Assembly (NCBI GenBank): GCA_010093815.1
Contig: ML996579.1
DNA from: Pseudovirgaria hyperparasitica
Taxonomy: Eukaryota
Direction: 5' to 3' (one strand)
DNA length: 26,867 nucleotides
Below are positions 1 to 26,867 of this stretch, piece by piece; position 1 is the stretch's first letter, and the number at the start of each line of letters is the position of its first letter. The notes under the pieces were generated by a model. That model worked only from the letters and a program-made list of their open reading frames with translations. It searched no databases and had not been told where the DNA came from. A program made the translations under genes and the position numbers.

Positions 1-810
1 CCACGCCCATAACCATTTGCGCGCTCGTCCCACGGTAGACATTTTCCCTGCGGGCTCAGTACTCCCAGGTTCGATAGTGCGATCACTAGGTCTGGGTTCA
101 TGGACAGGTGGGCGACACATGCAATCGCAATTTTCGCCTCTCCACTGCGGATACTCTGCGCCGCGAGGTGCAGAGCCGCCATACCGCCCGAGCATCCTGT
201 ATCTGTAGTGACGCTGGGCCCGCGCAAGTCGTAGAAGTGCGAAATGCGATTTGAGTACATGGCGGCACCATTGCCAGTGAAGTAAGACGCGGGTAGCGTT
301 TCGGGGTCCTTTATAAGGCGGTCACTATAATCACGGCCGAATGTGCCTGAAAAGACCGAGGTGTTTGAACCGGCCATGCGTTCGAGTGTGTAGCCGGCAT
401 CTTCGAATGCTTCGAATACTCCTTCCATCGAGAGTCTCAGCTGAGGATCCATGGCCTCCGCCGCCTCCGTTGCAACTCCGAAGAATGGCGCGTCGAATGC
501 GCTGATGTCCTCGTCGAGGAAATACCCTCCCTGTACATGATGCTAATTTTCTCATTAGTATCGGTTGATTCATAATATCGATCTCGCTAAGAGTAGGAGT
601 GTGACTTACTCGGTCTAGTCGCTGCTGCTCAGGGTGGTACAAGGACGCACCGTCGAAGCGTGTGGCTGGGATTGGGGACCATGCGTCTGTACCAGAAGAA
701 AGGAGAGTCCAGAGCTTGGATGGTGTGCTTGAAGAACCTGCGAAGCGGCAGCTTAAGCCAGTAATGGCTAATGGGCGAGAAGATGGTGGTTTAGGCGATG
801 GAGGTACCAT
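1..810 (-). CDS. Iterative type I polyketide synthase, reducing (HR-PKS-like), N-terminal KS domain only; gene continues off the left edge. Exons 810-610 and 542-<1
   Basis: ATG at 810 gives MVPPSP..LAITGLSCRFAGSSSTPSKLW. Intron 609-543 has GTAAGT donor, TACTAAT branch and TAG acceptor. Exon 2 reads HHVQGGYFLDEDISAFDAPFF..AMDPQLRL..SNRISHFYDLRGPSVTTDTGCSGG (KS catalytic Cys near 192-194)..WDERANGYGRG. The protein starts directly with KS (no SAT domain), typical of reducing PKSs. Downstream domains are not visible. Confidence 0.93.
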
Positions 811-1126
811 TTTGGACGTTGAAGATTTGTGGAAGTTGAGATGTAGGAACTGGGAGAGAAGAAAGCAGAGAACTGGCTGTTTCAGACTGGGACTGGGCTA
901 CGTGAAGTTAACTTGAATGTTAAGTTGCCATATATGTTGTGTTGCGTACAAGCACTCGTCCATTCACTCACGCTCACACGCACACATACGCGTAGCCAAA
1001 TTACACGCGCGTGCGATGTGAAATTGTTCTTGAAAACATTTGCCCACTCGTATTATTACTTATTTCTACTCAGCGCAAATATCTTCCTCGGGCACATTGC
1101 GAGGATAATATAAGTCTCCAATCCAT

Positions 1127-1200
1127 CGCAAACAGACATGACTACCGCAAATAGACATTACCACCGGAAGCAGACATTCACGTCGCACATACAACCCCTG
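1127..1200. repeat. Degenerate 19-bp tandem repeat (3-4 copies) upstream of the PKS
   Basis: Units start at 1127, 1146, 1165 and 1184: CGCAAACAGACATGACTAC / CGCAAATAGACATTACCAC / CGGAAGCAGACATTCACGT / CGCACATAC. Confidence 0.6.
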
Positions 1201-1295
1201 CCAACTTGCGAAAATACTCCGAGCGCATCCATGTCCACCGCCCACTTTATTAGTGATCTAACAATAATTTCAGGTGCATGAGTCAACATTGTATA

Positions 1296-1348
1296 GTGAA
1301 GAGCCAACATAGCAAGTAAAGAGCTAAAATCGTGGGTGAAGAGCTAAC
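1296..1348. repeat. Three copies of GTRAAGAGCYAA at exact 20-bp spacing upstream of the PKS
   Basis: GTGAAGAGCCAA at 1296, GTAAAGAGCTAA at 1316, GTGAAGAGCTAA at 1336. Confidence 0.6.
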
Positions 1349-2051
1349 CGCGTATCCCTGCACGATCCTCGGAGAATTTTGATAGTATGTATGGCGTGAA
1401 AATTAATCAACCAGAGTGTGGAGAAGAGTTTAAGTTATTAATTCTGCCTGGCCTCGGCAAAAAAAGACGTGGTCCCTGAGGAGAAACTGAGCCACCGGCA
1501 GTTGCAGCGTTGGGAGCGCTGTATGCTGTACACGTGGAGAGATTTCAGGCCCGGCGATACTATCGGAGGTAGCTCCGAACGTAATTGTAGAGCCGGGGAA
1601 ATGTTGTGCCTACCACTGATCTCCAAGTTCAGGTAGCTTCATAATGATATGCCATGAATGCACCGCAATATCGTTCAGTATGGCCGATGGTTTGGGGGAT
1701 GGGGATGAGCGATAGAAGAGCTATTTGTACAGGCTTCTGCTTGTAGGACAACCCCTGGTAGTGTGAGATGCCGCAATCGCATCATGCCTGTATGAGGATT
1801 TTGGGCATCCATATATATGACTTATTGCAGATTTAGTCACACTAAACGTACTGTTGGGGTGGACATTGACTATCCCATGAACAGTATATGTTTTACTGGT
1901 TAGAAGAAGTTACAATGTTATAGGCATTGTAGCTAGTTAAAAGACTACTACAATTGAAGCTGGAAAGCTCTAGTCCTTGCTGGTCATCTATGAAGCTGCA
2001 TATTTGGCTCTGCGTCTGAAAAGTATCAAACTATGTGGCCAAGAAATGATA

Positions 2052-3763
2052 CTAAGCATCCCTTTTCACCTCCCGTAGCTTCAAAGGTAAAGCCGGCTTT
2101 GTCCAGCTCAAATAACTTTTCATGCACCGCATATCATCCTCGGTAGACCATAATCTATTTGACTCCTTCGGATCTGCTAGCTCCGAATCGAAATTCCATA
2201 TAAAGTTGGCAAGAATCAAGCAAAGTTCGAAATAGGCAAGCTGCTTACCAATACAAGCACGGGGACCTACAGAGAATGGCTGTGAAGCTGCCAAATTATC
2301 TCCTGCAAACTGGTCATCCCAATCAGGATGATCGCGTGAAAGCCAGCGCTGTGGGCAAAACTCATTCGGGCGAGCGAAATTGAACTCCATGTGCGTAATG
2401 GCGAAAGATGGCACAGCAACAGTGCATCCTTTAGGTATAGACTCGCCACATATGACAGCACCTCCTATCGGAACTACTCGCTGTTGGCTCACGGCCGCAG
2501 CTGGGACGAGTCTCAAGGTCTCATTGATCGTTGCGTGGAGGTACGGCAGATTGTCCGGCTGGAGATTAGCCCAGCGAATGTCTTCAACCCTCTTGAACTT
2601 GCCACGGATCTCCCCCACCACCCGGCTGTAGACATGTCGGTCTGCATTGATGAAATAGGCCCACGGCGTCAAGGTACTGGCAGTTGTTTCACTGCCTGCA
2701 CTCACGAGTAAAACCATATTGATCATCAGTTCCATGTCTGAAAGGTCTTGCCGGGCCTCTTTGCTCTTAAGCACAAAGTACATTAGATCTTTGTGGTCTC
2801 TATCTCCGTCCTTGATACGTTTCTCGGTCGCCACCTTTGCTTTTTCAAAATGCAAGCGTCGCCATAGTGCTGCGCTCTTTGGAAGAAGTAATTTCTTGAA
2901 GATAGACTCAGCGTAGGTGTCCACTCCAGTCAGTCGTCTTATAGCTTGCTCCCAAGCTCCGCTCACAAAGACATTGATAATTGCGAGTGACCAGTCAGTA
3001 TCAGCTTTTTTGTCGAGGCATCCAAAGGTCTCCCCGAAAGTAAGTTCGCCCATGATATCAAATGTGGTATAGGTGACTATAGCTATCAGCTTTCAATCAA
3101 CATTGAAAGAATACATATCGCCACTTACACCAATGTAGCATGTTTGGGTGCTCGCCCTTGGCCGCGTAATCTTTCATCACTTGCATGAGTTTTTGGACCT
3201 GCCCTAGAATAATTTCTTGTTGGTTTAAGAGCGCGCCAGTCGTGAAAGAATGTCCTAGAGCTCTGCGATGGCGACTATGATCCTTAGTCGCCAGAGGTGC
3301 CATCGTCAATCCAACACTCCCTTGGACCTTTGGAACTGCTCCAATGAAAACTGGATGTTTTTCCATGTTGGAGTTACCACCCTAAGAGGTACGAGTTGGC
3401 TGGAATGTACGCTCATTGTAGATATATGAACACTCACTCTGTCGTAGATATTCTTCCAAGCATCTGAGTTCACAAAACTGAGCTCACTCGGGCCCACTCG
3501 TACAATCGCACCATACTTGCTGTGAAGTTTTCTGTAGTACGCATGCTGGCGACCTGCTGCTAGTGCAACTGCTGCCGGGATTTCGCTCAAGCTATTGAGC
3601 CAGGGGCCAGGGTATTTGCTCAAAGGGTGGAACACTCGTCTCTGCACGATGAACACCACTATCGCAAATGGAATCTGGAGTCTTATCAGTTGATTTCCTG
3701 GGACTCGAGTCACTCCAGAGTACTTACAACGCATAGAAGTAACGATTGAGGAATTAGAACCAT
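2052..3763 (-). CDS. aba2: Cytochrome P450, Aba2-like (C-1' hydroxylase of the fungal ABA pathway), ~516 aa. Exons 3763-3728, 3674-3438, 3381-3129, 3076-2052
   Basis: Three GT-AG introns of 52-56 nt join to 1551 nt in frame. Motifs: HPLSKYPGPW, WFTYTTFDIMGELTFG, I-helix SAGSETTA, ETLR, PQRW, heme FSVGPRACIG. Segments such as GRQHAYYRKLHSKYG, EKHPVFIGAV, WSLAIINVF and NMVLLVSAGSETTAS closely resemble Botrytis BcABA2 as I remember it. Confidence 0.9.
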
Positions 3764-4184
3764 AGTTACGACGATGTAGACGTGTTTGAGCTAGTGATCA
3801 TACCTCGAATAGAGTAAAGGAATACTTGTCGTGATGGATACTTTGGCGCACTTCAGTGACCATCGTATTTATGTCGCATTGTATTAAGGTCAGTCATCAC
3901 ATGATGACATTGAGCATGAATAGGATCGAATGATTTGGTAGAAACGACTCTTGGCCTGGGGCAAACCGCAAAACATTTGTCCGAAGCGCCAGCATCCGTA
4001 AATGACGCCCTAGTCACACCAAATGGTATTTGTCGCCTGATGCTGAATACAGCTTCTACCTCCATGTTGAAATTGAAATTGAATAGTATTTGGCGGCTGT
4101 TGCCGATGAGGAAGAAGAAAATCGATACGACCTGTCATCTTCACCGCGCGACTCTGTGTGTGACCGTCGTATAATCACACAATC

Positions 4185-5666
4185 ATGAAAGCCGAGCTTG
4201 TTGGTCATCATCGCATCTACTCGGAGCATGAGGATGCTTCGAAAAAGACAGCAGTACTACCAGCTATCGATAGCTGGGGTGCTTACTGGAGAACAATTGT
4301 GGCTATATACTTCTTCGAGTCGTACAGCGGTCTGGACGTCTTCAGCGATCTTCGAAAAAGCCTGAGCAGAGCACTAGACAGAGTCCCCCATCTGACTGGT
4401 ACTCTGGAGCCAACATCTATCAAAACAAGCGACGAGCCAGTCCGTACTTTCCGAAGGGTGAAGGTCACATGGGGGTCTGGTACTCCAGGCGGTGAATTGC
4501 TCGAGTGCAAAACAAACGCACGCATCAAGTCGCTCATACCACCTTCTGCTCAAGCGTCAAGCTTTGTGTGGGACCGATCTGATAAAGCACTTGAGGCACT
4601 CTTTCCTAAATGTCTTTCCGAAACGTCAGGACTCCGTATTCAGCTTACCAAATTCACATGTGGAGGCTTCTCAATCGCTATTGATATGGATCATGCCTTG
4701 GCAGATGCATATACAGTCGCATTATTCATAGGGTATTGGTCATCAGTGCATAATCAGATGTTCCCTACTACAGCAGAGCCGTGCCAATCTGCAAAATTGC
4801 CTGATCTCCTGTTCAGCCCCAGCATTGTGGAAGACAAGATACCAAGCGATGGCAAAAAACTTCTGATGCTGGAGAAATCTACTCATCTGCCTACTCGTCG
4901 TCCTGACTTTCGATTTCTATCCGCACCGAACAAGGAAATCATAGTCTCGCGTGATGGGCCTATACCAAATATGAAAAGACCAAACTCAGTCAGCACTCAG
5001 TATCTATTCCACGTCTCGGAGTATGACTATGAGCGGATTACGCGTGGGGTACAGGCCACAGCAGATGTTCAGGTTACAGATCAGATAGCTTTTACTGCTT
5101 TCCTTTGGGCTGCTCTGAATCAAGCGCGACTACACTGCGGACGTCATTCCCTCGATTTGCATCTATCGCTCAGCCTTCGATGGACCCTTGGCCTCCCAGA
5201 AGGACTAGTAGGTAGCCCCTTAGTTGCAGTCATGTTTGACAGCGGAGAGGATCTCCACACCGTTCGCAGAAGACCATCGGTGCTTGCAACAGCCATCACA
5301 GAGACACTTGAAAAGTACACAGAGGACGCTCTTCTTGGTATAGTCTACGACGCGAGTATGCGTGACAGTCCCACCAGCTCCTCGAGGGGTACTGAGAAGA
5401 GCGAGCGTATGGAGCTCACGTCCGGCGTTGGATCTATCTCAAGTGCTCCTATCTTTGGTTCGTGCAGACCATTGTTCATGGCTCCTCCAGCTTTGCCTGT
5501 CGAGAACTTGTTTATCATGGCAGACTGCTTGTCATCTAATGCTGGGACTACTGCGAAACGATATGCCGATGGTTACAATATATTTGTCAGCTTGCCTAGG
5601 GACGTATACTGTAGTCTAATACAGGATCCGGCCTTCAGTGCTTTTGAGGTGCTGGACGATCTCTAG
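4185..5666 (+). CDS. Acyl-CoA-dependent acyltransferase (BAHD/Tri101-like transferase family), 493 aa, intronless; probable counterpart of the accessory transferase in abl-type clusters
   Basis: Long uninterrupted ORF. LRIQLTKFTCGGFSIAIDMDHALADA carries the HxxxD catalytic motif (4692-4706). LRKSLSRALDRVPHLTGTL matches the usual N-terminal signature. The C-terminal DFGWG motif is degenerate (PIFGS). Divergently transcribed from aba2. Confidence 0.85.
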   Translation: MKAELVGHHRIYSEHEDASKKTAVLPAIDSWGAYWRTIVAIYFFESYSGLDVFSDLRKSLSRALDRVPHLTGTLEPTSIKTSDEPVRTFRRVKVTWGSGTPGGELLECKTNARIKSLIPPSAQASSFVWDRSDKALEALFPKCLSETSGLRIQLTKFTCGGFSIAIDMDHALADAYTVALFIGYWSSVHNQMFPTTAEPCQSAKLPDLLFSPSIVEDKIPSDGKKLLMLEKSTHLPTRRPDFRFLSAPNKEIIVSRDGPIPNMKRPNSVSTQYLFHVSEYDYERITRGVQATADVQVTDQIAFTAFLWAALNQARLHCGRHSLDLHLSLSLRWTLGLPEGLVGSPLVAVMFDSGEDLHTVRRRPSVLATAITETLEKYTEDALLGIVYDASMRDSPTSSSRGTEKSERMELTSGVGSISSAPIFGSCRPLFMAPPALPVENLFIMADCLSSNAGTTAKRYADGYNIFVSLPRDVYCSLIQDPAFSAFEVLDDL

Positions 5667-6141
5667 AGGTACTGTTAACTTATATATTCTGTTGAGATCT
5701 CTGATTCTGCGCATCGGGGTGCGACATTATTGAGATACGTTCTACAGTGTAAATGGAGTCTATGTAGTCTTTACACATGATTTGCATAGGGTTAGGAATT
5801 GAGTTAGGCAGATTCTTAGTGTGCATATCATAGGTTAGGTGGAGAAATGAGAAGAGACTGTCTCATGAAAAAGAGATACCAATACAAGTCTCTAACCATT
5901 GAATTCATCGACCGGAGTGCTCTAGCTATTCACGAAAATTCTATCTGATACATATTTTAGATTCATAGTTCCAAGGTAAAGCAGTTTGTATACAATGGTG
6001 GAATTGTAGAAAGTGGACTCGAGTAAGGGAAGTAGGAAGGTCATTTCACAATTTTCATATCGCGCACAAACTAATAGCTTGAATAGCCAACAATCGAGTC
6101 AATACTCTAACGCAAACGCTATTGACCGTGAGAAGTGCCTG

Positions 6142-7518
6142 CTAAGTTTGCGAGAAGACTTCATTAAGCTCTGGGAAGATGAGCGCAGCTCTTTCATGGA
6201 GCGTATCCAGATGTGCTGACCAGGTGCTCCGACAGGACAGACAAAGCACAACACCTCCAAACCGACCATGTGCTTCTGCACCATAGTAATCTCGAAAATT
6301 ACAGCTGGAGCAGTTCTGGTCGCTTTCAAGGTAGCCACAAAGCCCAGGAAACATGTATATCTCACTTCCGGTGGACACAAGATGACGAAAACGATCCTCG
6401 TCCTTCATCCGTTCGTCATCAGAGTCAACCCTGTACCAAAGCTTACGATTCTTCCTGGCTTGATCAACAACATCTCGAGTTTCAGAGCGTCCGATTGTGA
6501 GTTCTTCCTCAACAAATCTGTATCGTCTCATCATTATATGGATGGGACCTCCAAAGAAACGCACAAAATTTAGAACGGGTGTGTACTCAGCTCTTCTAGA
6601 GAGGGCCACATCAAGGGCCCATAGGACCTCTCGAGCCTGATGGAAGGCGGTTATGCGCTTGTCCGACGGCATATAGGCGAATGTGCTGTTAGTTTCCCCC
6701 TCGCTCCGATGTTTGAAGAATGCTACTGCATCATAGAGGGTGTCTCCAATCTCTGTGAGGATCTCGTACTCGCCATCTGACAACTTCACACTGTCAAGAT
6801 CATTACAAGCCAGTGCGGAGGCTATAGTAAATCGGGCCAGGGCGTCTGCGTCCCTCATTCTGAACCCTGGCGAGGGGAGCGAGCAAGCGCATTCACATAT
6901 CGCCGAAAGAGGACACCATTGCGGCGGTTGCTCGACTTGTCTGCAGTTATCAGCAGGAACGACCTATATTCACGGCACATATTTTCACTGTTGGGTTCAA
7001 AAGTCAGTTATGGCTCTAATAGCGGGTGGAGCTCTTACTAGTCTGCCGTCCCGGCGAACAGATCGTCGAGAACTTCTTGAAGATTATATCCTAGAATATT
7101 GTCTCCTGCTGTTACATCGACTAGGCTTCCTTTGAACTCTGCAATAACACCCATGATGATGATCCGCATGAATGCGATGTACCGCTTCCAATTTGTGTAT
7201 TGCGGAATAACACATCGAGTATACTCCCATGCACAAGCGAAGACTTCTTGTTTGACAACAGTCGACATGTTGAGACTCTCCAGGTCATTGGCAATCTCGC
7301 TGGGATAGTACCACTTATTCTTTGGAGTGAGCTTGTCAGGCTTCTGTATAGGCTCATGTCCAAGATTTGGGCTTTGGTGATTCTCGATAGAGCTGACAAA
7401 GTTTGACGTATACTGCGTGGATGAATAAGCAAATGTTATCGAGCTTTATATTAGTTGAAAGATGACAAACCGCTTGCCAAAGTACCCCCACCTGTTTGAG
7501 AATGTCAATTCCAAACAT
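6142..7518 (-). pseudogene. aba3: Aba3-like alpha-ionylideneethane synthase (non-canonical sesquiterpene cyclase), frameshifted as written; ~415 aa if one base is restored at 6866/6867. Exons ~7518-7492 (tentative), 7412-7039, 6987-6142
   Basis: WYYPSEIANDL..FACAWEYTRCVIPQYTNWKRYIAFMR..IAEFKG, then REYRSFLLITADK..LFRRYVNALA, then MRDADALARFTIASALACNDLD..IGDTLYDAVAFFKHRSEGETNSTFAY..RFFGGPIHIMMRRYRFVEE and C-terminal CSSC..CLSC. These blocks match BcABA3 as I recall it. Intron 7038-6988 has GTAAGA/CTGAC/CAG signals. Exons sum to 1247 nt, not a multiple of 3; CAG GG TTC AGA ATG stands where CAG TGG TTC AGA ATG (QWFRM) is expected. Family assignment is confident; pseudogene versus sequencing error is unresolved. 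Confidence 0.88.
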
Positions 7519-8415
7519 TGAAAGGTCTATGATTATGATTTTCACTATCTATAATCGTCGTGTTGAGTGTAATCTTGGATATCGAGTGGAAATCAGAGGG
7601 TTGCACAACGTATTATCATAGTAAGTTATTGTTTCCAACCTTTGTAGTAAAGCCAAAGAAGGCGACTTCCACGTGCATCTTCAAAAGTTTACGGCTCCTG
7701 CAAGCAAGTCCCTGTAATAAAGCCCATGAACCATTAGCGCAATATTTTCTCACATTGGCAAGGGTGAATTTGTGCGGTAGAGAACTTTACCAGACCGTAG
7801 TAGCCTTGCCTTAATTATGGGAGGCATTCTAAAGGGGACGCTCAAACTTTACTATAATTACTTCGAATGAAAGTAAGCCACACTACTTTACAACCATTAA
7901 TAAATTTAATTCGGGTCCTTGGGAAAAGAAGTGGGTTTGACTTAGAAAGATATTCGCAAGTCGATAATACATTTAGATTGCTGTGTTCTCAAGACGCTAA
8001 ACCGCTACAAGCTGGCCATGGAGCCATGTTAGGTGACCCACTCTCAAAGACCCGAATAGGGGGTTCGGGTGAATTGTCGTGATGAGTCCCGGGATAACTC
8101 TGCATGAGAGACTGAAATTGATTGGCTCCAGGGTACGCACTTCACTTATACCCAAATATTGGCGTTCAATTGATTTGCCGATGCCAGTCAAAGTGTTTGA
8201 AATGCCCGGCGGATGAAAGAAAATCACCTCACATGAGAGCTGCATACGGCTCAGCCTACACAGGAAGCCAGCGAATGAGGTGATTGAAATGGAGGTAGCG
8301 GGATTCTATCTGATGTAAGCCTGTCTACCAGTAGACGATATGAGATGAATGCTTTCTAGATTGTGCCTGATTCGAAGTCTGAGGAATATCTGACAGTGTC
8401 TACTAGCTAAGAGAC

Positions 8416-10214
8416 ATGACATTCAACCCGACGTACAGCCTTCGAACCATGGGCTCTTCTCCGTCTATCACTGAGCAGGAGGTTAGATCTGGAAGTCATA
8501 GTCTTATCTTGATCATCGTCGCAGCTAGCTTTCTAATCTGGCTCCTCTTCTCCGGTGTCTGGTCCTACCGCCGTCTATGTCACATTCCGACTCCTTCAAG
8601 ACTCGCTGGCCTATCGTACCTCTGGTTAGGATATATTACCTGGAGTGGAAAGCAATACTGGGTTCATCGCGATCTACATAAAAAATATGGTCCCTTGGTC
8701 CGCATTGGTCCAAATGAGGTGATGACAGATGATCCTGAGATTCTGAAGAAGGTTGCATCGACAAATAGCACCTACCGCAGAGCAGAATGGTATCTGACGG
8801 GAAGGTTCAACCCCTACTTCGATAACTTGTTCACTATTCTTGATCCAATCCCACACCAGAAGGCCAAACAACGTTCTATGCCAGCTTACTTGGGGAGAGA
8901 GACACCTGGATTGGATGTTATCATTAACGACAAGGTGAAACTTCTCATTAAAGTACTGTGTGACCGACATTTGACTTCTGATCCCGGGCAAAATCCGCCA
9001 CTTGTCAATCTAGGAGTGATTACGAACTATTTTACGATGGATGTTATTACACACCTCGGGTTTGGTCACGAAACAGGATATCTCCGAGACGATCAAGACC
9101 ATTATCGCTTTCTTGAAGGTGTACGCAGACTCTGGCCTCAAATGTCGACTGTTTCTGAGGTCCCTTGGATGCGTAGGGCCCTGTTCTCGACCCCAATGCT
9201 AAAGCTGTTCGGTCCAAAACACACAGACAAAGAGGGTTTCGGGGCGCTCATGGGGTGAGTAGTTCGATTCTATGTATACTGCGGCTAGACTAACATCCAA
9301 GTGCTGCTCGCGAACATGTTAATCGCCGATTCGAGTTGGGAGAGGGAAAGAAAAGTGACATGCTGGTATGATCTGTTTGTAACGTGAAGTAGTCTGATAT
9401 TCACCAAGGACGTCACAGGAAACATTTATCAAGCTAGGGTTCAATCGCCAGGAGTGCGAGTCTGAAGGGCTCTTTCTCCTGCTATCTGGCACTGAAAGTA
9501 CGGCATGTGCTATGCGCCAGATCTTAGTCCACGCCATTACTGCCCCAGCGATATACGATATGGTAAAGGAAGAGATCATGCGTGCCTGTCGCGAAGGGTC
9601 GGTGTCCTATCCCATCACCATGGTGGAGGCCAAGAAGCTTCCTTGTCTCCAGGTACCTTAAACTATCACATGAAACACCAAGAGTATGCTTACAGGTAGT
9701 ACAGGCCATCATCTATGAAGGCATTCGAATGCGACCACCTTTGCTTGGAACTTTTCCCAAGGTTGTTCCATCCTCTGGCGAAACGTTTCATGGCCACTTC
9801 ATCCCAGCAGGGACGTCGATTTGCACCAACGGGTCATCATTGTTGCGCTCCAAGACTCTATTCGGGAACGATGCCGAGGTGTATAACCCCATGCGATTCA
9901 TTCATCTAGAAAAATCCAAACGTGAAGAGATGGAGCGTAACGTGGAGCTTACGTTTGGTTATGGACAATGGATGTGCGCCGGCAAGACAATCGCTTTCAT
10001 GGAAATGAACAAAGTAATATTCGAGGCAAGTTAGCAGGATCATGAATCTTACTGCGAACTGACCGTGTCCGATTAGTTACTCCGTCACTTTAACATTCAG
10101 TTGGTCGACCCGTTGAAGCCCTGTGATGTAAAGAGCTATGGAGTGTTCCTTGAACCCAATCTTTATGTGCGCATTACAAAAGATCAGAACGTATCTTTAG
10201 GAGTGAAAGCATGA
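8416..10214 (+). CDS. aba1: Cytochrome P450, Aba1-like, ~520-531 aa. Exons 8416 (or 8449)-9254, 9302-9365, 9419-9652, 9705-10025, 10077-10214; last intron is GC-AG
   Basis: N-terminal TM anchor, then SGKQYWVHRDLHKKYGPLVRIGP..TDDPEI..WYLTGRFNPY, nearly identical to BcABA1 as I remember it. I-helix LSGTESTA, EGIR, heme FGYGQWMCAG. Exons join to 1596 nt in frame. Divergent from aba3. Confidence 0.9.
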
Positions 10215-11077
10215 ACTAGTCAGGGGGGCGACGGTTGCACTTTCTCTGCGTTTTGAGCCTACTTTTTGCCTTGCGAACGTAAAGCTCGATCAGAGCACAT
10301 GTACTTAGGTGAATAGGTACCAATTCATGTCCATGTTCGATACTGCAGAATGTCGCAAACTTTGAGCTACTCGATGCAGAATCGTGTTTCTCATAATGCC
10401 CTTGAACAATGACATCAAGAATCGTTGTCAGCCGACTGCCTCAGATGAATGTGAGACCAATTAAGCAGCTATTAGCCCATTGGATCACACAAACATCTAA
10501 AGTTTTCCACCTTTACCGTGATATGAAGGCAAGCATGTCGCCAATGCTTTGCTAGGGCTAACGAACATGTCCTAATTACTTGGTAAGCCGGAGAAACATT
10601 ATTGTTAATAAAGTAACGACGTGATATCAAGCAGTTCCTAGCGCATCGACCTAACCTCGGTCTTTCTTCCACAAACCATAATAATACAGATAATGAGCTC
10701 TACCGATTCATGAGTGCTCCGGCTAAATTATAATCCCTGTCGGAGAAACTTCTAGCTCTTACTATTTAGGTTCCATCTAGCTACCGATTGGCAGCGTATA
10801 GTAAGGGCAGCTAATGATTGGACGTGTGTTGTGGGGAGCCTCGCTATAGGTTTGGCTGATATTATTATCATTAATTTTGCACAAGATACTTGGCTGCGGA
10901 AGCTTCATTCGATTTTGGTGATGTGCACTATCATGTACATGAAAATTCGTATTATGCCGTCACATATATTATGCGTCGAGTGGCCTATATGAGATAGAGC
11001 ACCGTACACCGATAGACTCACCACGGCACCGATTTCCAAGGAATACATCTTCTAAGTTGCTGCTCCAGAAAATAGAT

Positions 11078-12835
11078 ATGGCTAAGCCATCCCTTCTATC
11101 CAAGCTTCTTCCGCTACTACTGATTAATATAATTGGTAGCGTGTTTCTGAAGAAATACCACAGCAGCAACGACGCAGGAAGCGCCGTGAACCCTCTCTTG
11201 ATACAAGTTGCTGTCAACCTATCCGTATGGATCTCCTACAAGACCTTCATCTATCCCCGCTTTCTCAGTCGCCTCAGGTCACTACCGACAGCTAAAGTGG
11301 GTAAAAGAACAGTACGTGGAACTTGTTAATGCAGCTGATAGTGATCTCAGAGAACACTACCATTCATTGGCTATGGGCCTGTCCAATTCGCCGATGCCCG
11401 CGGTGAAACATTATTGAAAATGTCCGACACAGTGCCAAACAAAGGCTTGGTTCGGTTTCACGGATTTATGGAAAGCGAATGCCTCCTACTCACGAGTCCA
11501 GAAGCCACTCAAGAAGTACTTGTTCAAAAGTCATATGATTGGATCAAGCCGCCAGCGGCGAAAAAGTTGCTCGAATGGTGGTTCAAAACCGATTTGCTTT
11601 TTTCAACTGAAGGTGCTCGTCACCGTGAGATGAAGAAGAACATGACAGCATTCTTCAGTCTTGCGAAGGTGAAGGTCTTGTACCCACTTCTGTGGGAGAG
11701 GGCTCTTAAGATGGCCGATGAAATTGAACGTGCCGCCAAACTTGACACTTGCAAGAGCGGGACAGTTGATATCAAGCAGTTTGTATGGCAGCATACACTT
11801 GATACTACCAGGCGTACCATCTTTGGGGAGCAGATAGAGAAGTCTCCCCGTAGATATGAGATCATGAAGCTACAAGGATCGGTTTTGGGTACCACCTGGG
11901 ACATGAGAGTCTATTACGCTTTGAATGCCTTCTTGCCGAGGTGGACTGTGAACTTGATTCCCGGTGGTATCAGCGAGAGGGTCAAAAGCTCAAGCGAGGA
12001 TTTGACAAAGGCTATTAGCTCATTCATAAAAGAGGTGGAGTCAGAGACGTACTCAGCAAGTCTGCCTGGAATAGCTGTTCAAATGTCTCAAGCAGGATTT
12101 TTCACTGATGACGAGCTGGTAGCCAACATGTTAGGAATTGTCATTGCAGCGTAAGTCAATTTCACTAACATCGCATACGAACCTAATCCCACGCCACACA
12201 GAGTCGAGCCAACTGCAGCTGCCTTCCTTTGGGTTATATATTATCTATCGAAATATCCCGAGTGGCAAACAAAGGTCCGCGATGAGATGAAAACAAAGAT
12301 ACCATACTCAAGTGCCATTGGACAAACCGAAGTTGTCAACGTCGCCGATACATTTGAAAGCCTTACATATCTAGACGCTGTTTGTAACGAAGCACTACGA
12401 CTAATGCCAACAAACCCTACAACCAATCGTATTGCCAAGGATGACACAACGATACTAGGCCAGTATGTTCCCGCTGGGACAAAGGTCTTCGTCTCTTCAT
12501 ACGTTCTTGATCGCCACCCTCAGATCTGGGGTCCCACAGCTCGGGAATATAACCCGGGCCGCTGGCTGGAGAAGCGCCCGAACGAAAGGCTTGAAAAGCG
12601 TACTGGAGTGGCAACAAGCTCCCACGCGGGATTCTTACCTTTCTTACATGGGTCGCGCAAGTGTATTGGCTTCATGTATGCCCAGGCTGATATTCGCTCA
12701 CTCGTGGCGTCTCTTGTTGGGCGATTCGAGTTTGAGATGGCGGATCTTAATGAGAAAATCATTCCGGCTGGCGTACTTTCGAGCGCGCCCAAAAACGGTT
12801 TGAACATTCGCATTAAGAGAGTAGAGGCATGGTAG
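11078..12835 (+). CDS. Third cytochrome P450 (accessory, abl5-like by context), ~550 aa. Exons 11078-11296, 11351-12150, 12202-12835
   Basis: Hydrophobic N-terminus; two GT-AG introns (54 and 51 nt) join to 1653 nt in frame. Motifs: YLDAVCNEALR (ExxR), YNPGRW, heme PFLHGSRKCIG. The I-helix reads IAAVEPTA. Confidence 0.9.
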
Positions 12836-13220
12836 CATATTCGCGCAGTATGTCCGACATATCGGACAGCGATTTCTCAATGCTATACAGTTTCGATGGA
12901 ACGTGCGGATCGTGCATATAGTTCTCTCTGGTAGAGTAGCTAAATGTGGCTTAAGTTTTAAACTTGGCTTTCCATATATATGATGTGCCATTTCTCCGGA
13001 ACATTGAAGTATATTATGTAAACCTTTTGTCCGAAATGCTATCGTTGAAGTCCCAAATCTCCTGCAACGCCGAAACTTTTTGGCACTATAGGCAGTATTC
13101 TAGCCTTCTAGCATGACAATATGCTGTTCCCAAGACTATACAGCAGCGTTCTGGCACAAAAGCAAAATTGACTGTAAAAGTTCCCAAGTGGGACGAACGA
13201 TGCTCTCTTGTGGGCCGGAA

Positions 13221-15237
13221 TCAGACCAACCCGGCCTCTTCTGTCTTTATTGAATCGAGGAACAACCTGGCTGAGACATTGATGCTTCTCAGCCCATGTA
13301 ACGCATCCAATAGTATTCCTAGGTTGAGTTGGGATTTATCCACAGTCTCAATCGCATGCTGGTATTGACTTGCCTGGATATATCGCACCGCGGAAATCAA
13401 TGTAACTGGCATAAACATAGAACTCTGCAATAGTGTTAGATTGTCGCGCCAGGATCTCTAAACACGCGTCGATAAAAAACGTAGTAAGACACAAGAGAAT
13501 AATAGGACGCTAGTCAAGCAACACTGTAGATAGAGCTCAAGAGCTACCGGGTGTCAAATGTGTCTTCTAGTGGAACTAGACAGTCTACTCACTTTGAAGT
13601 TGGTAGGACACTGGTGGTGTGCAGAACACTGTGCTATTTCCGCTGCTGCTGCATGAGCTCGCCGTAAAGCCCTCTCCTTCACTTCCTGTTCTTCCATACT
13701 CTGTGCAGGAACACTGTCTATAGTCTCAGCGAGATGGATCGGCAGTAAGTGCGCAAACGAACGGGAGAAGATCTGCATAGGATCTTCGCTTGGCAATTCC
13801 TTAGTGCCTGGGGCATCGATACATCTTATACACTCCTCAGCAGCGTTGGAAAGCCATTCGTGTCGCGCTCGTATATCATTGATTCTCTTGAATTGAGGTT
13901 GAGTTCCATGGACCAGGCGTCGATGGGTAAGACACCGACCGTACAAGGTTGCCACCGTGACACACTGGGCAAATGGCGATAAGTTAACCGTGGTCAGATC
14001 GCTCATCAGCTCGGTTAGACAACCCATCTGGATCTGCACCGAACTTTGAAACCAGAGATCTGGTACTGGCAAGCGCAGTCGTATCTGTGCAAGCGTGATG
14101 AACTATCTCCCGGTCAACAACAGCGTAGGGCAGGGCTCACCGTTTCTTCATGCAAGGCCCAAGACATATCGTCTTTCTGGTGTAGAAGGCGATCAAAACA
14201 AAAAGCAAGCCAAAATGTACGTCTTTTCTCTTCTAGTTGGCTCAGTGCGTCATCTTGCGCTGAATGGCTAGAGGCATCCAGCTCGCCAAGGCGAGATCTT
14301 TGAACAAGACGAAGTGCCCGGGATACTGCGTATGCAGTCTGGCGATCTTCCTTGTGCATCCACTCATATACTCCGAGTAGAAGCCAGGCTTGAATCCTTT
14401 CTATTCTAATCTGCTCTGTAGGCCATGGCAGCCCATCATCACAATCATCTAAGCTTTCCAAATATTGAATGGCTTCGTGGTAAAGGAGCTCGCCAATGCT
14501 TTCATACTGTGCGGAGAAAGCGGCAGCGGATGCACGCATAGCTAGTCGAAGGCTGTTGCAAGCTGGGGGAGGGTCCTTTTGACTTGCCCACAATAGATAA
14601 TGATGCTTATGAATGATTGGTGCAGATGGATATACGCGATCGAAGAAAAGCTGTTCTCTAATATGAAGACATCAGATCCCAGATCGCAACTTTCGAATCA
14701 ACTTACAAGTCCATCAGGATAAGTGGTGATAGATGCGAGCCACTCTTCAACATCTGATAATCGGGTATTGGTATGGGCAGGAATAATGTCTCGAGTTGCA
14801 TTGCACTCGGTTCCGCACACATAGGCCCTTCCTGTGAGAGGTCATTAAACATATTGTCTAATAGTAGCATATCGGTCCCTGAAGTGTCAGTGTCGGTTGT
14901 ACCGAGGGATCCGCAGCTTATATCCGGTGAAGTGCCTTGCGTGCCCTGGGGAAGATCGTGCGACTGTGGCCGTCTAGCAAGTTGTCCCTCGAGTAAAGCT
15001 TCAGAATAGTTTCAGTTACCCGTCGCTCCTGGAAGGACGAAGTTTTTGTAGTTTACCTATCCGGTCCCTTAGCGCCTGGAGTTGCCCCTTCTTAGGACCA
15101 CGCTTTTTGCTATCGTGATATACACAAGCCGTGCCGGCCTCGTGGCATGCACCACACTCTGGTCTGACACGATCACATTTTGTCTTACGGCGTCTACACT
15201 GCCCGCAAGATAGGTGTTGGCTCTGTGTCAAAGACAT
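13221..15237 (-). CDS. Zn(II)2Cys6 transcription factor with fungal-specific TF middle domain, ~561 aa; likely the cluster-specific activator (abl7-like by context). Exons 15237-15057, 14998-14707, 14657-14141, 14084-13593, 13424-13221
   Basis: CGQCRRRKTKCDRVRPECGACHEAGTAC is C-x2-C-x6-C-x6-C-x2-C-x6-C, followed by KRGPKKGQLQALRDRI. Middle region: LFFDRVYPSAPIIH, IQAWLLLGVYE, EEKRRTFWLAFCFDR, LRLPVPD. Four GT-AG introns give 1686 nt in frame. The last exon is the least certain. Confidence 0.88.
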
Positions 15238-17359
15238 TTCTTGGTAGTTGAACGGACTCTGAGTTGTTTGGTCGATGGACAACGGCTAAGTTCGATTGCT
15301 TTAATATGAGACAAAGAGGCATGTTAGTTAGGACCTCGATTCGGATCGCCTTCATCAACAGCCTATAAGAAACCCAGTCATGTATAAGGACGTCAGACCA
15401 TGCTTCATTAGTAGTGGCAGTGAAGAATGCAACGACGTAAATCCGTTCACACCACTCTTTAGCTAAACACAATGCACTTGATTGATCTTTGCACGAGGAC
15501 ATGCTTGCTGCGACTCTATGTAGACTATTTCGTCACTGCATTAAGTTTTTGACTTATCCAGTCATTACGTGTTGCCTTGTGCCTTCGGATGTGTCTACGG
15601 TAGACCATCGCTTGCTATGCACGCTAGGGCTCAGGGTCATAGTGCCCCCGCCCGCTACAGTCAGTACACAGGGAAGATGCTTCTAAAATGTTACTCGTGG
15701 TGTTTGACGAGAAAGTTGATAACAAGCCGCGAGAGCTGGGGCCGATACGCATGAAGGTACTCTGCTCATTGAGGTAACTAGAGCGGTACGAGACTGTGGC
15801 ATGATTAGCTGTAGGCTTCATAGAATGAGGACTTAGCCGATACATGGCATGGGTAAATATGTGTGATTGGCAACTTGCAGTTATGAGATTCATGGCTGGG
15901 TGCTATGGTTTGTGATCTGTGGAATCCCCAGCCGTTCAAGTTTACCGTTGTTTCAGGATAAGCATGATATCATTCGTCGTAATTGGACCCCACAGTCTCG
16001 AACTTCCAAGCATCGTTGAAGGTCTTCCTTAGCCTTCATCAATAAGATAAATCAAGGTGGTGTTACTATAGGACTTTAAGCTTACTCGGGTTCGCCCGAT
16101 CTGTTGGGTTATCGACTGCCTATTGTTTCGGCACTGGAACGAGGATGCGATCTTGATGGCGTGAAGAATTATAACCACTTAATTCGACCTACCGGAGCAA
16201 GTTATGTAATCGGATGCGATGCACTTCGGCCTTGTCGGACCGAAGCTAGGCCTGGTCTATGAACGGCCCCACGGCACTTACGCCAAAATTAGGTTTACAA
16301 TTAACAGCCCGTGGGGTTTGGAACCGAATTCGGGATAAGTTCGTTTTCGGTTAGATACGGATAGGATACGCGCCGAAGTGTATCATGCCTGGTTTTAGTG
16401 CCAATGTCCCGTCAGCCCACATAGACTGATCCACTTACCTACGAGATACTTCCATAGCTCGTAGTAATCTAGACGTTTAGCGTCCATACCTATGATAGTT
16501 ACTAGAATTCTTACTCTCCCGTTCTAATAAAGAGGTTCTATCTAATTAATTTTCCTACGTAAGAGTCCTTATACATAAGGTGGATGCTATGTCGACTATC
16601 TCGGCTACGCTCTCTTAAGAGAGTAGTATAACTATCTAAATAGAAATAGGACCTAAAAAGATTCGAGATCATGACCTAATGGATAGGAACGAATGTGAGT
16701 GGCCTAAGTAAAGTAGGAAAATGGTCCTAGCATACATCGATATGTATTATGCCCACCGTATTTACCAAAGACTATCGTCTTTCTATAGAACGTGCGGATA
16801 GTATTAGACCGTTTTTCGCCGTTAACCTACTTATATATATAGTAAACTACTTCCTAGTATATTAGCTATGTACACGACGGGCCGATGCCATGATTAAGCG
16901 TGGAGATTCCCCTACAACCCCACGGTAATTAGACCCACGATCCGTCGGGCTCAAATGCATCGAACACTTTCAGCGCGACTCTTAGTAATCCCTCCGTAAC
17001 CTTTTCTACGTAACCCTTAGCACGTGTTACGCGCGTAATAGATACATTTTCTCTTATTCTTTAAAGATTTATATCTTCTCTAATAACTCTATTATAAAGA
17101 CTATCATGAAGGAGCCGTTCTTTCGATATACGAAAGAACGTGGCACGGGCCTATAGAGGAGCCATGCACGACTCTTGGCATGAAAAACGAGTAATCGAAA
17201 GAACACCTAAGGCAGAGTCGAAAGGCAGCCCTTCCCATGCCTGCACTATCACAAAACTTAGTAATAATACTTATCTATATATAAACTTATGTCCTTTCGA
17301 AAACGAAGTTAAACGGCCTAGTATTAGTAAAGATATAGGCTGGTGAAAAGGATGACTTT

Positions 17360-18110
17360 TTTGAAGTTCTGGTTTTGATGGGGTACTAGCTTAGAATCGG
17401 GGCTCGGCGTTTAGTAAGGAACACCAGAACCCCTCCAGAACCTCTATGTAAAACAAGCCACACCCGGCTATTAATAATGGCTGCACTCTCTCGAAATTTT
17501 AGAATAATACTCTTCTTTCGATTCTACTATGGGTATACTAAGAAAGTAAAAAGATATCTCCTCTCGTTCTATTTATAAAGAGGCGTCGAAGTTTGAAGAT
17601 TTTGGTAAGTGAGACTTCGATGGGGTACTAGCTCGGCACTAAAACCAGGGTCCACACAGTCGACTTTCCATAGAATACTACCACTTTTTACATAAGATAA
17701 GCCACACACGGCCATTAGTAATGGCTGCACTCTCTCGAAATTTTAGAGTAATATTCGTCTTTCGATTCTATTATAGGTATACTAAGAAACTTAAAGGATA
17801 CCTCTTCTCCTTCTATTTATAAAGAGCCGTCGAAGTTAAAGATTACCTTATACTTATATTCTAATAGGGTGCTACCTCTTTAGACTACTTAAATTCTAAT
17901 ATAAGATAAGCTATATATACCTATTAATAATAGCTGCACTCTTATAAAATTTTAGAATAATACTCTTCTTATAATTCTACTATAGGTATACTAAGAAACT
18001 TAAAAGATATCTCTTCTCCTTATATTAATAAAGAGCTATTAAAGTTTAAAGATTCTACTATATAAGACTTTAATGGGGTACTAGCTCGGCGCTAAATCTA
18101 GGGTCCTTCC
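17360..18110. repeat. Tandem array of ~3.3 copies of a ~210-245 bp unit, RIP-diverged
   Basis: Anchor GATGGGGTACTAGC-like sequence recurs near 17377, 17618, 17863 and 18073. The block AAGCCACAC..AATGGCTGCACTCTCTCGAAATTTTAGA..GGTATACTAAGAAA..ATAAAGAG..GAAGTT recurs near 17455, 17699 and 17909. Confidence 0.9.
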
Positions 18111-18700
18111 TAATATGGCTAGACTATATTTCCGACGGCCCTTCCGTTGGAAACCCTCTACTATTAATATTATTAAGTCTTCTATAGTACTCTCTCTTTA
18201 AACTAGACTAATTATAAGAAATATAAGTATATAGACTTAGTCTATACTACTAGATCTATCTATTATTAGACTTATAAGATATAAGATATATATATTAACT
18301 AGCTATAGAGTATATATATCTATTATAATAGATATAACTAAAGTATTACTATACTAGTAAATGAAGATATATTATAATTTAACTTAAGAAGTAAAGATAA
18401 ATCTATATAGATTATAGCTTAAGTATATAGATTAAATAAGATTATATAATATCTCTATACTAGTTCTATCTATTCTAGCTCTATTAAATAATACTTAAGA
18501 TAGAATAAAGCTAAAGTCTATAATATACTCTTATTCTCTAGAGTTTTATTTATATATTAGTTCTATAATTAGAGAAGATATATTTCTATTATAGTATATC
18601 TAGTTATATAATAATAGAGTAGTCTATTACTTCTATTATAATATATAAGATATATAAAAAGTAATAAGATCTTCTCTCTAATATAGTAGATCTAGTTATA

Positions 18701-19607
18701 TATTAGGTACGTGCCTACTAGTTAATTATATATGTATATAGTAGTCGTATATAAGTAGTATACTCCACCCTTAAAGTAGTAGCTTTAAGATTCGGTCCTT
18801 TTAGTATAGTTAGTTAGTATATAGAGCCNNNNNNNNNNNNNNNNNNNNNNNNNNNNNNNNNNNNNNNNNNNNNNNNNNNNNNNNNNNNNNNNNNNNNNNN
18901 NNNNNNNNNNNNNNNNNNNNNNNNNNNNNNNNNNNNNNNNNNNNNNNNNNNNNNNNNNNNNNNNNNNNNNNNNNNNNNNNNNNNNNNNNNNNNNNNNNNN
19001 NNNNNNNNNNNNNNNNNNNNNNNNNNNNNNNNNNNNNNNNNNNNNNNNNNNNNNNNNNNNNNNNNNNNNNNNNNNNNNNNNNNNNNNNNNNNNNNNNNNN
19101 NNNNNNNNNNNNNNNNNNNNNNNNNNNNNNNNNNNNNNNNNNNNNNNNNNNNNNNNNNNNNNNNNNNNNNNNNNNNNNNNNNNNNNNNNNNNNNNNNNNN
19201 NNNNNNNNNNNNNNNNNNNNNNNNNNNNNNNNNNNNNNNNNNNNNNNNNNNNNNNNNNNNNNNNNNNNNNNNNNNNNNNNNNNNNNNNNNNNNNNNNNTT
19301 TAGCTTACCACGTTATATATACTTTATATACGTGACGGATAATATGGTAGTAACGTTACTACGGTAAGTTAGCGTATCTAGTACTAGAGGCGGCATTATA
19401 AATATTAATTATATGCACATGGTTTATACTAGGCCTAGTATAACTAGCGCGTATACTAGGCCTATTATAGCTAGTTTAGTTTATCTTTTATAAGGTAGAT
19501 ACCTATAACGTGTAAGGGTACGCGCCTTTAAAAAGGGGAGATATTATTAGGCACGTGCCTACTAGTTAATTATACATGTATATAGTAGTTATATATAAGT
19601 AGTATAC
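18701..19607 (+). mobile_element. Small LTR-bounded element (possibly TRIM-like/non-autonomous), RIPed, spanning the gap; 3' LTR interrupted at 19608
   Basis: Direct repeat TATTAGG(T/C)ACGTGCCTACTAGTTAATTATA..TAAGTAGTATAC at 18701-18763 and 19545-19607, with TA probably RIPed from TG. The second copy is preceded by a polypurine tract AAAAAGGGGAGA (19530-19541). Confidence 0.6.
18829..19298. other. Assembly gap (470 N)
   Basis: Run of N. Confidence 1.
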
Positions 19608-19774
19608 TGTGGAAGGCCGCTCCTACAGCCCTACATGTATGTGTCCCTAGCTCGATTACATGGCTTCATTATATATTTAAGGAGAGCGTTTTCCTTGGTC
19701 ATTCTACTCGGCGCGCTTCCCCTATCACTAATATTTGACTATTCGATCTTTCCTTATGTTTATAGGCCTCTATA
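19608..19774 (+). repeat. Putative 5' LTR (~167 bp) of the Gypsy element
   Basis: Starts TGTGGAAGGCC exactly where similarity to the host repeat breaks off. Ends GGCCTCTATA, an imperfect RIP-compatible inverted match to the start. TATA-like TATATATTTAA inside. The second LTR is not in the window to confirm. Confidence 0.6.
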
Positions 19775-25700: not shown

Positions 25701-26867
25701 TAAAAACCTATAATAAATATTAACGACGAAGTAAACTCCTTAGAGGTCTTAATAAAGGGCTCTACCACGTTATAACGCCTATTCTTTAGTAAAGAATATA
25801 CTTAGACGTAATGACGCTATCACCTTCTATAGGGTATAGTAAAGTAGTATCTATACGAGAATAGCTAAGCGGATAGACTAAGGCGGAGGCATGTACGGCG
25901 GCCACGTCTATAGTCGTCGTAAAGTTCCTCTTTAAGAACGTAATCTATAGATACGGAATCATTCCTAAAATTACCTATAACGGTGGTAGAGAAAATATAG
26001 GTGCTATAGAGGAGCTCCTCTAACTCTATAGAATTTATTAGAAGGTTACGTCTACATATAATCCCCGAGTAAATAGGATTATTAAGAGAAGTTTTATACT
26101 ACTCGCTAATGCTCTCGCGAAGATAACTAATGGCGGATTTAAGAACTAGCCCGGCCACCTCCATGCGGTTATCTAGGTAGATAGAATAACGACACGTACT
26201 AGTATAGGGTATAGTACCGTATACCTCGTACTCGGCCATAAACCAATCATACCTATTAAAGTCGAATTCGAGTCGCTCCGAATACTCCCTTAGAACGAGG
26301 TACGATCGACGTCCGACTTACTCGCTCTTCGAGCTAGATAACTTAAGAGAAGATCTAAGGATCTTAAGGAGGCCTATACCCACGCGACACGAACGCGTAA
26401 GGAATCGAGAGAGGCATAGAATAACGACTATTACCTTCGTTAAGAGTCGTTACTAGTCGATATAATTATCCTCCTATACGACTCGTAGTAATAGAAGGAT
26501 ATAGGGTGGAAGCTAAGGTAGTATTAGAGGGGGCCATATAGAATCTAGTCTATATTTAATTATACTTATAAGCTCGCGGAGCTTAATAGAGCTATACTTA
26601 GAGGGACGTTTCCTAGCCATAGGTTAAAGAAATATTTTATAAGAAATGTAAGTAACGAGAGTCACGACAAGCCCTCGCGACTACCAATTAGAAGAATTAC
26701 TAAGGAAAATAAGGAGAGTAGCGATAAGGAAAACTATTATAAATAACTTACGGAACACCTTAACGACGCTATACGAACCCGGGTAGAAGTAGTAATTCCT
26801 ACTCTATAAGACTTTAATAGAGAAGAATATTTACGTTTCCCTAGAATTAACATCTTCTTCTAGGGGA
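19608..26867 (+). mobile_element. Ty3/Gypsy LTR retrotransposon, RIP-inactivated, 3' end beyond the window
   Basis: All in one frame: gag KRFKGINITAFLRKYED (~20666); degenerate CCHC knuckle YIIYRGDHLIYRC (21650-21688); protease LFDSS from DSG (~22751-22765); RT RLINSAIEINRVT..FITPLG..LP*GATN..PFLDN from FLDD (24365-24376); RNase H ILVVDSS..NYDTVKLE..IEIDAN; integrase YLDV..ITYNGGREN..YNPRVNRIIKR; GPY (26531-26539). The order PR-RT-RH-IN is Gypsy. Confidence 0.95.

Follow-up and report, generated by a model that had tools for sequence, protein, structure and literature searches.

A candidate counterpart of the Leptosphaeria maculans abl cluster, with a frameshifted cyclase gene, in the rust mycoparasite Pseudovirgaria hyperparasitica

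Fungal abscisic acid (ABA) biosynthesis is treated as the four-enzyme pathway of Botrytis, in which ionylideneethane is converted to ionylideneacetic acid and then to the 1',4'-trans-diol acid, and for which bcaba1-4 suffice to make ABA in yeast (PMC6876084). A second type of cluster is described in Leptosphaeria maculans and consists of abl1-abl7 together with a polyketide synthase (PKS) gene, PKS5 (Darma et al. 2019, as relayed by PMC7986464, PMC8159818, and database names). Here we describe a 26,867-nucleotide stretch (the window) of contig ML996579.1 from the Pseudovirgaria hyperparasitica assembly GCA_010093815.1. Positions 1-15237 of the window hold seven genes: the 5' end of a PKS gene, an aba2-like P450, a BAHD-type acyltransferase, an ABA3-type sesquiterpene cyclase, an aba1-like P450, a third P450, and a Zn2Cys6 factor. 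On balance we favor the view that this region is the P. hyperparasitica counterpart of the abl cluster, that the PKS, acyltransferase, and third P450 are a conserved module that may attach an acyl ester to the terpenoid, and that a frameshift in the cyclase gene has probably inactivated the pathway.

Several properties of the L. maculans cluster bear on this locus. PMC7986464 reports that all of its genes, including the PKS, are coexpressed in planta within a biotrophy expression cluster. A table in its supplement identifies abl7 (XP_003843017) as the factor of the cluster, reports that its overexpression leads to overproduction of ABA, and describes pathogenicity as unchanged in PKS5, abl1, and abl7 lines. 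The table also lists the PKS5 knockout as losing ABA in vitro, and the abl1 knockout likewise. Already published are this type of cluster, its gene names (abl1-7, PKS5), and its coexpression in planta; the PKS and the acyltransferase of L. maculans have been left unexplained since 2019. P. hyperparasitica belongs to the Acrospermales (Dothideomycetes) and, according to PMC3317363, lives as a mycoparasite on the sori of rusts. The abl-type cluster is now also found in this new ecological setting, a rust hyperparasite.

Genes of the cluster and their relatives

The locations of the features are collected in Table 1. The first-pass annotation had placed all seven genes where they are found, and its end coordinate, 15237, is the initiator Met of the factor; it overlooked the frameshift in the cyclase and the missing aba4 gene. 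The cyclase open reading frame (ORF) at 6142-6963(-) is without a Pfam match; its product shares 100% identity with a P. hyperparasitica hypothetical protein, 65% with LEMA_P087760.1, and 60% with Bcaba3. Over its full length the cyclase is 65.6% identical to abl3 and 60.2% identical to BcABA3, and it matches the solved BcABA3 structure (8zac) with an E value of 1e-147. The key residues of BcABA3 (Glu, Arg/Lys/His/Tyr, and four Cys) are all retained (11/11); the list, and the role of R202 as a pyrophosphate-binding arginine, are taken from PMC11695735. P450-B, with Pfam p450 on 8407-9258/9567-10034(+), has full-length identities of 65.8% to L. maculans abl1 (E5A7E1) and 57.5% to Bcaba1. The earlier aba3-like and aba1-like assignments both stand on these figures. 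The database names of the L. maculans proteins are 'Alpha-ionylideneethane synthase abl3' (LEMA_P087760.1) and 'Cytochrome P450 monooxygenase abl1' (LEMA_P087750.1), and the genes abl1, abl3, and abl6 share a single L. maculans contig and have neighboring accession numbers.

Table 1. Positions of the genes and other features in the window
Feature	Position	Strand	Details
Reducing-type PKS, 5' end	1-810	-	Met 810-808; exon 1 to ~604; short intron; exon 2 from 542 to 1, continues off the window
P450-A, aba2/abl2-like	2052-3763	-	Public model of 516 aa in four exons, maps at 100%
Divergent spacer, P450-A / acyltransferase	3764-4184	.	421 bp; ATGs at 3763(-) and 4185(+)
BAHD/Transferase-family acyltransferase, abl6-like	4185-5666	+	Intronless, 493 aa; Pfam PF02458 on 4164-5666
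ABA3/abl3-type sesquiterpene cyclase (alpha-ionylideneethane synthase family), frameshifted	6142-7678	-	
Frameshift and public-model 'intron'	6865-6916	-	Frameshift at ~6865-6867; 50-nt GT..AG 'intron' 6867-6916; from DNA reading and tblastn
P450-B, aba1/abl1-like	8289-10214	+	Public model of 511 aa
P450-C, third P450	11078-12835	+	Introns 11297-11350 and 12151-12201
Zn2Cys6 / fungal-specific transcription factor	13221-15237	-	Stop at 13221, Met at 15237
Right border, gene-poor low-GC flank	15501-26867	.	GC 0.37-0.38, no Pfam family

The heme-binding Cys motif is present in all three P450s. P450-A has Pfam p450 on 2052-3092(-) within an ORF spanning 2052-3797, matches P450s of 526 residues from Pyrenophora and Lizonia at 63-65% identity, and shows no internal deletion of conserved residues. 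Its assignment depends on a 1059-residue Rutstroemia sp. protein (P0257) found in the Bcaba1 cluster, which is evidently a single model fused from two neighboring P450 genes. The first half of this model is 58% identical to P450-B. Against the second half, P450-A shows 46% identity over 469 residues (E 9e-141), whereas P450-C reaches only 25% with the fused model. In Botrytis, aba2 adjoins aba1 (locus tags, PMC6876084), and we infer that the second half of the Rutstroemia model is aba2. P450-A is therefore predicted to be the aba2-like enzyme, since the half that it matches follows an aba1-like half and the Botrytis genes are adjacent in the same way; P450-C would then be the extra enzyme. The aba2 call made earlier for P450-A is favored by this comparison. 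The likeness of P450-A to abl2 and BcABA2 is traced through the Rutstroemia second half and a name transferred by annotation. P450-C has Pfam p450 on 11345-12835(+) within an ORF spanning 10943-12835, and no close named relative was found for it (best identity 37-39%).

The acyltransferase has 'Acyltransferase abl6' of L. maculans as its top non-self match, at 54% identity in the search and 55.8% over 477 aligned residues. The search was word-indexed and non-exhaustive, with an E value threshold of 0.001, and returned five matches. The HxxxD motif noted at first pass is H170..D174, and it is invariant in all six aligned abl6-like proteins. The predicted fold is that of a full-length Transferase family member (TM 0.84), and its structure-atlas matches bear generic family names only. 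The start codons of this gene and of the aba2-like P450 gene flank the divergent promoter that the first-pass annotation had measured exactly. That annotation was correct in pointing to a similar abl cluster in L. maculans, as judged by the abl6 name of the top match and by the listing of PKS5 in that cluster.

Approximately 250 residues of the PKS lie inside the window. Pfam ketoacyl-synt was found on 3-542(-) and 331-897(-) with an E value of 5e-49. The ketosynthase (KS) begins ~12 residues past the initiator Met, so the starter-unit (SAT) domain is lacking, and the KS active site reads DTGCSGG. The strongest match among solved structures is a bacterial PKS, followed by psoA (1.8e-45) and LovB (6.5e-41), with non-reducing PKSs at ~1e-21. 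As far as the window shows, the absence of a SAT domain and the rank of psoA and LovB ahead of the non-reducing enzymes agree with the earlier call of a reducing PKS. KS identity was set aside as a criterion for PKS orthology, since unrelated highly reducing PKSs (HR-PKSs) of known structure align with the whole fragment about equally well.

A single Zn2Cys6 factor, as previously called, closes the cluster, with the motif at 15124-15207(-) and Fungal_trans at 14114-14671(-) (E 1.5e-13). The Pfam scan covered 20 window ORFs of at least 100 residues and then 31 more of at least 60 residues. No adh_short or other dehydrogenase family, and hence no aba4-type gene, was found among these 51 ORFs; this negative applies to the window, and the part of the contig past the PKS (beyond base 1) lies outside it. 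No known esterase or hydrolase was found among the window ORFs by the Pfam scans.

These comparisons place the locus closest to the L. maculans cluster. The likeness amounts to 66% for the cyclase, 66% for the aba1-type P450, and 56% for abl6; each cluster contains a PKS together with a Zn2Cys6 factor, and each adjoins repeat-rich, low-GC DNA. The gene order differs. By accession, the L. maculans order is abl6, one gene, PKS5, one gene, abl1, abl3, and abl7. The hosts of the two clusters also differ, one being a plant pathogen (of canola) and the other a rust mycoparasite, and a frameshifted cyclase is noted only in the latter. Compared with Botrytis, the aba1 and aba3 proteins are 57-60% identical, P450-A is 46% identical to the presumed Rutstroemia aba2, and the cyclase keeps the key residues. 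The Botrytis cluster has four genes, including the dehydrogenase aba4, and has no PKS, acyltransferase, or third P450, whereas the window lacks aba4 and has all three extra genes.

A break in the cyclase gene

The cyclase gene is interrupted by a frameshift. A tblastn search with abl3 aligned residues 51-185 in frame -1 down to position 6867 and residues 183-424 in frame -3 from position 6876, with no residue skipped. The DNA is one base short at a site where the relatives of the cyclase carry a Trp codon, and this site lies within a conserved coding stretch. The upstream frame reaches a stop at 6857-6855, five codons past the shift, and the conserved continuation is found in the other frame. 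The public model spans the break with a 50-nt intron and consequently lacks 17 residues that are conserved in five relatives and that directly precede the equivalent of BcABA3 R202. The DNA retains the codons for these 17 residues in frame with the preceding exon. The donor of the intron is weak by eye, and the intron reads as an artifact that bridges a broken frame. Contigs from two DNA runs, X1 (depth 338) and X2 (depth 261), have no differences and no gaps relative to positions 1-16000 of the window, frameshift included. These contigs rule out an assembler slip. The pathway is probably inactive, or recently inactivated, at its first step in the sequenced genome because the cyclase gene is one base short within a conserved coding stretch. 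With a broken cyclase, the sequenced strain offers poor prospects for a search for the product.

The alternative that fares best takes this break further and regards the whole cluster as a decaying relic that makes nothing, situated at the edge of a low-GC, repeat-like, gapped region, with a frameshift that is both real and inactivating. We give this idea nearly even odds. The frameshift is flanked by conserved stretches on both sides and is followed by a stop within five codons, removal of the weak-donor intron deletes the 17 conserved residues next to the pyrophosphate-binding arginine, and the flank is gene poor with low GC. The condition of the remaining genes argues the other way. No frame defect was seen in the six genes other than the cyclase, and past the shift the cyclase still has 241 open codons; any loss must therefore be very recent. 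The DNA runs that support the break are also not independent of the assembly. Transcripts were examined in contigs from two RNA-like runs of P. hyperparasitica (X3 and X4). The 168-nt intron of the factor gene at 13425-13592(-) is spliced in contigs of both runs, and the 51-nt P450-C intron at 12151-12201 is spliced in an RNA-like contig. P450-C and the factor are transcribed and spliced, which counts against a dead cluster. Coverage by X3 and X4 is zero on 535-9078, a span that includes most of PKS exon 1, P450-A, the transferase, the cyclase, and the 5' part of P450-B.

Accessory genes in other loci and the candidate pathway

Metagenome contigs from JGI were scanned with an ABA3 alignment, which gave 20 loci, and the window proteins were then compared with all 20 by tblastn. 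In six of the 20 loci (L008, L009, L010, L012, L015, and L018), ABA3 has an abl6-like transferase (31-50% identical) as a neighbor. By nucleotide identity these six loci form approximately four groups (L008 with L009; L018; L010 with L012; and L015). An aba2-like gene adjoins ABA3 in seven loci (L006, L007, L008, L010, L011, L016, and L018), and P450-C-like genes (31-41% identical) are present in four (L008, L010, L012, and L018). L008 and L018, each 21 kb long, hold the aba1-like, P450-C-like, and aba2-like genes, ABA3, the transferase, and a PKS together, in an order unlike that of the window. Because this gene set is found again, rearranged, in other genomes, chance does not account for the linkage between the accessory genes and the aba genes.

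The partner PKS in L008 and L018 has the domain order KS-AT-DH-CMeT-ER-KR (ketosynthase, acyltransferase, dehydratase, C-methyltransferase, enoyl reductase, ketoreductase), with an HR-PKS NAD-binding domain between the C-methyltransferase and the enoyl reductase, and it ends at the locus edge within the ketoreductase. These domains mark the synthase of both loci as a predicted highly reducing, methylating enzyme. In L008 (5352-6880) and L018 (5323-6825) an aldehyde dehydrogenase gene (PF00171) lies between the P450-C-like and aba2-like genes, and it has no counterpart in the window. In an ABA3 tree of 44 rows, a single group of 21 rows contains all eight transferase-linked rows and leaves out BcABA3, although the SH-aLRT value for this group (85) is weak and most of its other rows have neighbors of unknown content. 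The idea that transferase-linked clusters bracket Botrytis in the ABA3 tree was not borne out.

The same parts are known from other pathways. Fumagillin and squalestatin are precedents for an HR-PKS working with a dedicated acyltransferase. Pathways to sesquiterpenoid-polyketide esters include those of fumagillin (Fma-PKS and Fma-AT), harzianum A (Tri17 and Tri18), and the drimane esters. Judged by their parts lists, these pathways and the present locus have in common a terpene cyclase, P450s, an HR-PKS with reducing domains, and an HxxxD Transferase-family enzyme. They differ in that the scaffold here would be of the ionylidene/ABA type, and in that an ester product is known for those pathways and none for ABA3-type clusters.

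A pathway can be drawn from these homologies. By homology to Botrytis, the ABA3/abl3-type cyclase would convert farnesyl diphosphate to alpha-ionylideneethane, the aba1-like P450 would oxidize this product to alpha-ionylideneacetic acid, and the aba2-like P450 would add the 1' and 4' hydroxyls. The conserved linkage suggests that this scaffold is also what the HR-PKS, the abl6-type enzyme, and the extra P450 work on. Our best guess for the HR-PKS product is a short, reduced, and probably methyl-branched acyl chain. Chemical considerations and the missing aba4 point to a role for the abl6-type enzyme in esterifying this chain onto a hydroxyl of the ionylidene/ABA-diol scaffold. The 4'-hydroxyl would be the natural acceptor because the window is without an aba4-type dehydrogenase; the alternative is a hydroxyl introduced by the third P450. 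The pathway may end with the ester, or the ester may be a short-lived intermediate from which hydrolysis yields ABA. The loss of ABA in the PKS5 mutant, as tabulated in the L. maculans supplement, may be easier to reconcile with acylation before ABA is formed than with a decoration added afterwards, a view that we hold loosely. In its most general form, the proposal is that one branch of ABA3 clusters, spread over several lineages, obligatorily couples an ionylidene/ABA scaffold to a methyl-branched polyketide acyl group through an abl6-type transferase. This generalization is tentative and we consider it possible rather than probable.

If the general proposal is true, the product outside Botrytis would be either an ABA-type polyketide ester acting as a pro-hormone or other signal, or ABA that is made only via acylated intermediates. 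Free ABA in L. maculans would then be a hydrolysis product or the end of the line. The module accompanies ABA3-type cyclases in unrelated genomes, and both in a rust hyperparasite and in plant pathogens, which makes the need for the PKS a testable question. Neither the recurrence of the accessory trio in several lineages nor the domains of the partner PKS nor the hidden frameshift was found in print in the literature searched, which did not include Darma et al. 2019. No paper was found there that assigns chemistry to the PKS, the transferase, or the third P450 of ABA3-type clusters; PMC13288456 and PMC12001456 are silent on them, and PMC8939313 held nothing usable on a PKS.

Several findings weigh against reading the locus as an abl counterpart that would couple a polyketide chain to the terpenoid and that has been inactivated. 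The window KS shares 52-56% identity with the KS domains of the L008 and L018 HR-PKS, which by score is not above its match to unrelated solved HR-PKSs, and a link to PKS5 is not established by this value. In L001, L002, L006, L016, and L019, where the flank amounts to 1.4-3.7 kb, there is no transferase, PKS, or P450-C gene; the accessory module is not carried by every ABA3 relative. Apart from these five and the six transferase loci, the metagenome contigs are too short for their accessory genes to be judged. ABA chemistry needs no PKS, since bcaba1-4 alone suffice in yeast (PMC6876084). The loss of ABA in the PKS5 knockout does not fit a scheme in which ABA is made first and the ester later, as far as the second-hand entry in the PMC7986464 supplement goes. 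Neither a product of this fungus nor an ester of this kind turned up in the literature searches. As for the frameshift, the X1 and X2 runs are probably the source of the assembly and give no independent confirmation of it, and the 50-nt GT..AG bridge might in principle be spliced, with the RNA-like contigs giving no coverage there.

Two alternatives concern the order of the chemistry, and we regard each of them as rather unlikely. The first was proposed in the first-pass annotation: ABA or an ionylidene acid is finished first, the third P450 hydroxylates it, and the transferase loads the polyketide chain to give a masked or modified hormone. The part of this proposal that places the accessory trio in the terpenoid pathway is sustained by the linkage (6/20 loci, with the full set in L008 and L018), and the parts fit the logic of an HR-PKS with a dedicated acyltransferase conserved alongside ABA3. 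The simple decoration of finished ABA is harder to sustain. The table entry for the L. maculans PKS5 knockout has ABA lost, not increased, and this result counts against late decoration because late tailoring would leave ABA intact or raised. The abl7-overexpressing strain is moreover reported, in the same source, to make free ABA, the window has no aba4-type dehydrogenase so that finished ABA may never form, and no such ester was found in the literature searches.

The second alternative has the cluster making free ABA, with the PKS, transferase, and third P450 acting indirectly or transiently, for example by providing an acyl handle or protecting group for the oxidations that is removed before release. 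Its appeal comes from L. maculans, where PMC7986464 and its supplement have abl7 overexpression giving ABA, both PKS5 and abl1 tabulated as needed for ABA in vitro, and the whole cluster coexpressed in planta. Against it, the Botrytis enzymes yield ABA with none of the accessory genes, no esterase or hydrolase is known in the window, and the knockout information is second-hand. We doubt this explanation to the same degree as the first.

A chance juxtaposition of two unrelated clusters, with the PKS, transferase, and third P450 making a separate polyketide, is very improbable: the interleaving of the genes without a clean block in a window that holds only the 5' end of the PKS leaves some room for it, but the same combination recurs in L. 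maculans and in approximately four metagenome sequence groups with rearranged order, which is hard to explain without a shared function, and the transferase and the aba2-like gene share a promoter.

Borders, gene models, and transcript observations

The right flank of the cluster (Table 1) gave no Pfam family among 28 ORFs of at least 60 residues beyond 15.5 kb. An assembly gap of 470 N lies at 18829-19298 amid very AT-rich sequence. The flank has an A-rich skew and resembles degraded repeats of the kind left by repeat-induced point mutation, recalling the setting rich in transposable elements reported around the L. maculans cluster.

Two database records related to the P450s carry misleading names. 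A Pyrenophora teres record in the 90% cluster of the P450-A relatives is labeled 'Tyrosine-protein kinase abl2', which looks like a slip arising from transfer of the gene name abl2. A Plenodomus lingam P450 record is likewise misnamed 'Tyrosine-protein kinase abl1', the gene symbols having evidently been expanded to the wrong product. Within 8289-8502, the public model of P450-B begins with a 9-residue first exon at 8289, and an alternative in-frame ATG is found at 8449 inside the main exon.

Two features of the RNA-like contigs concern the third P450 and the factor. One contig (10911-11501) is unspliced across the predicted 54-nt first intron of P450-C at 11297-11350, which contains in-frame stops. 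At 13997-14645, contigs of two runs join 14216 to 14422. The 205-nt joint, 14217-14421, has GT..AG ends on the plus strand and lies inside the factor coding region; it looks like a spliced antisense transcript, possibly arising by read-through from P450-C.

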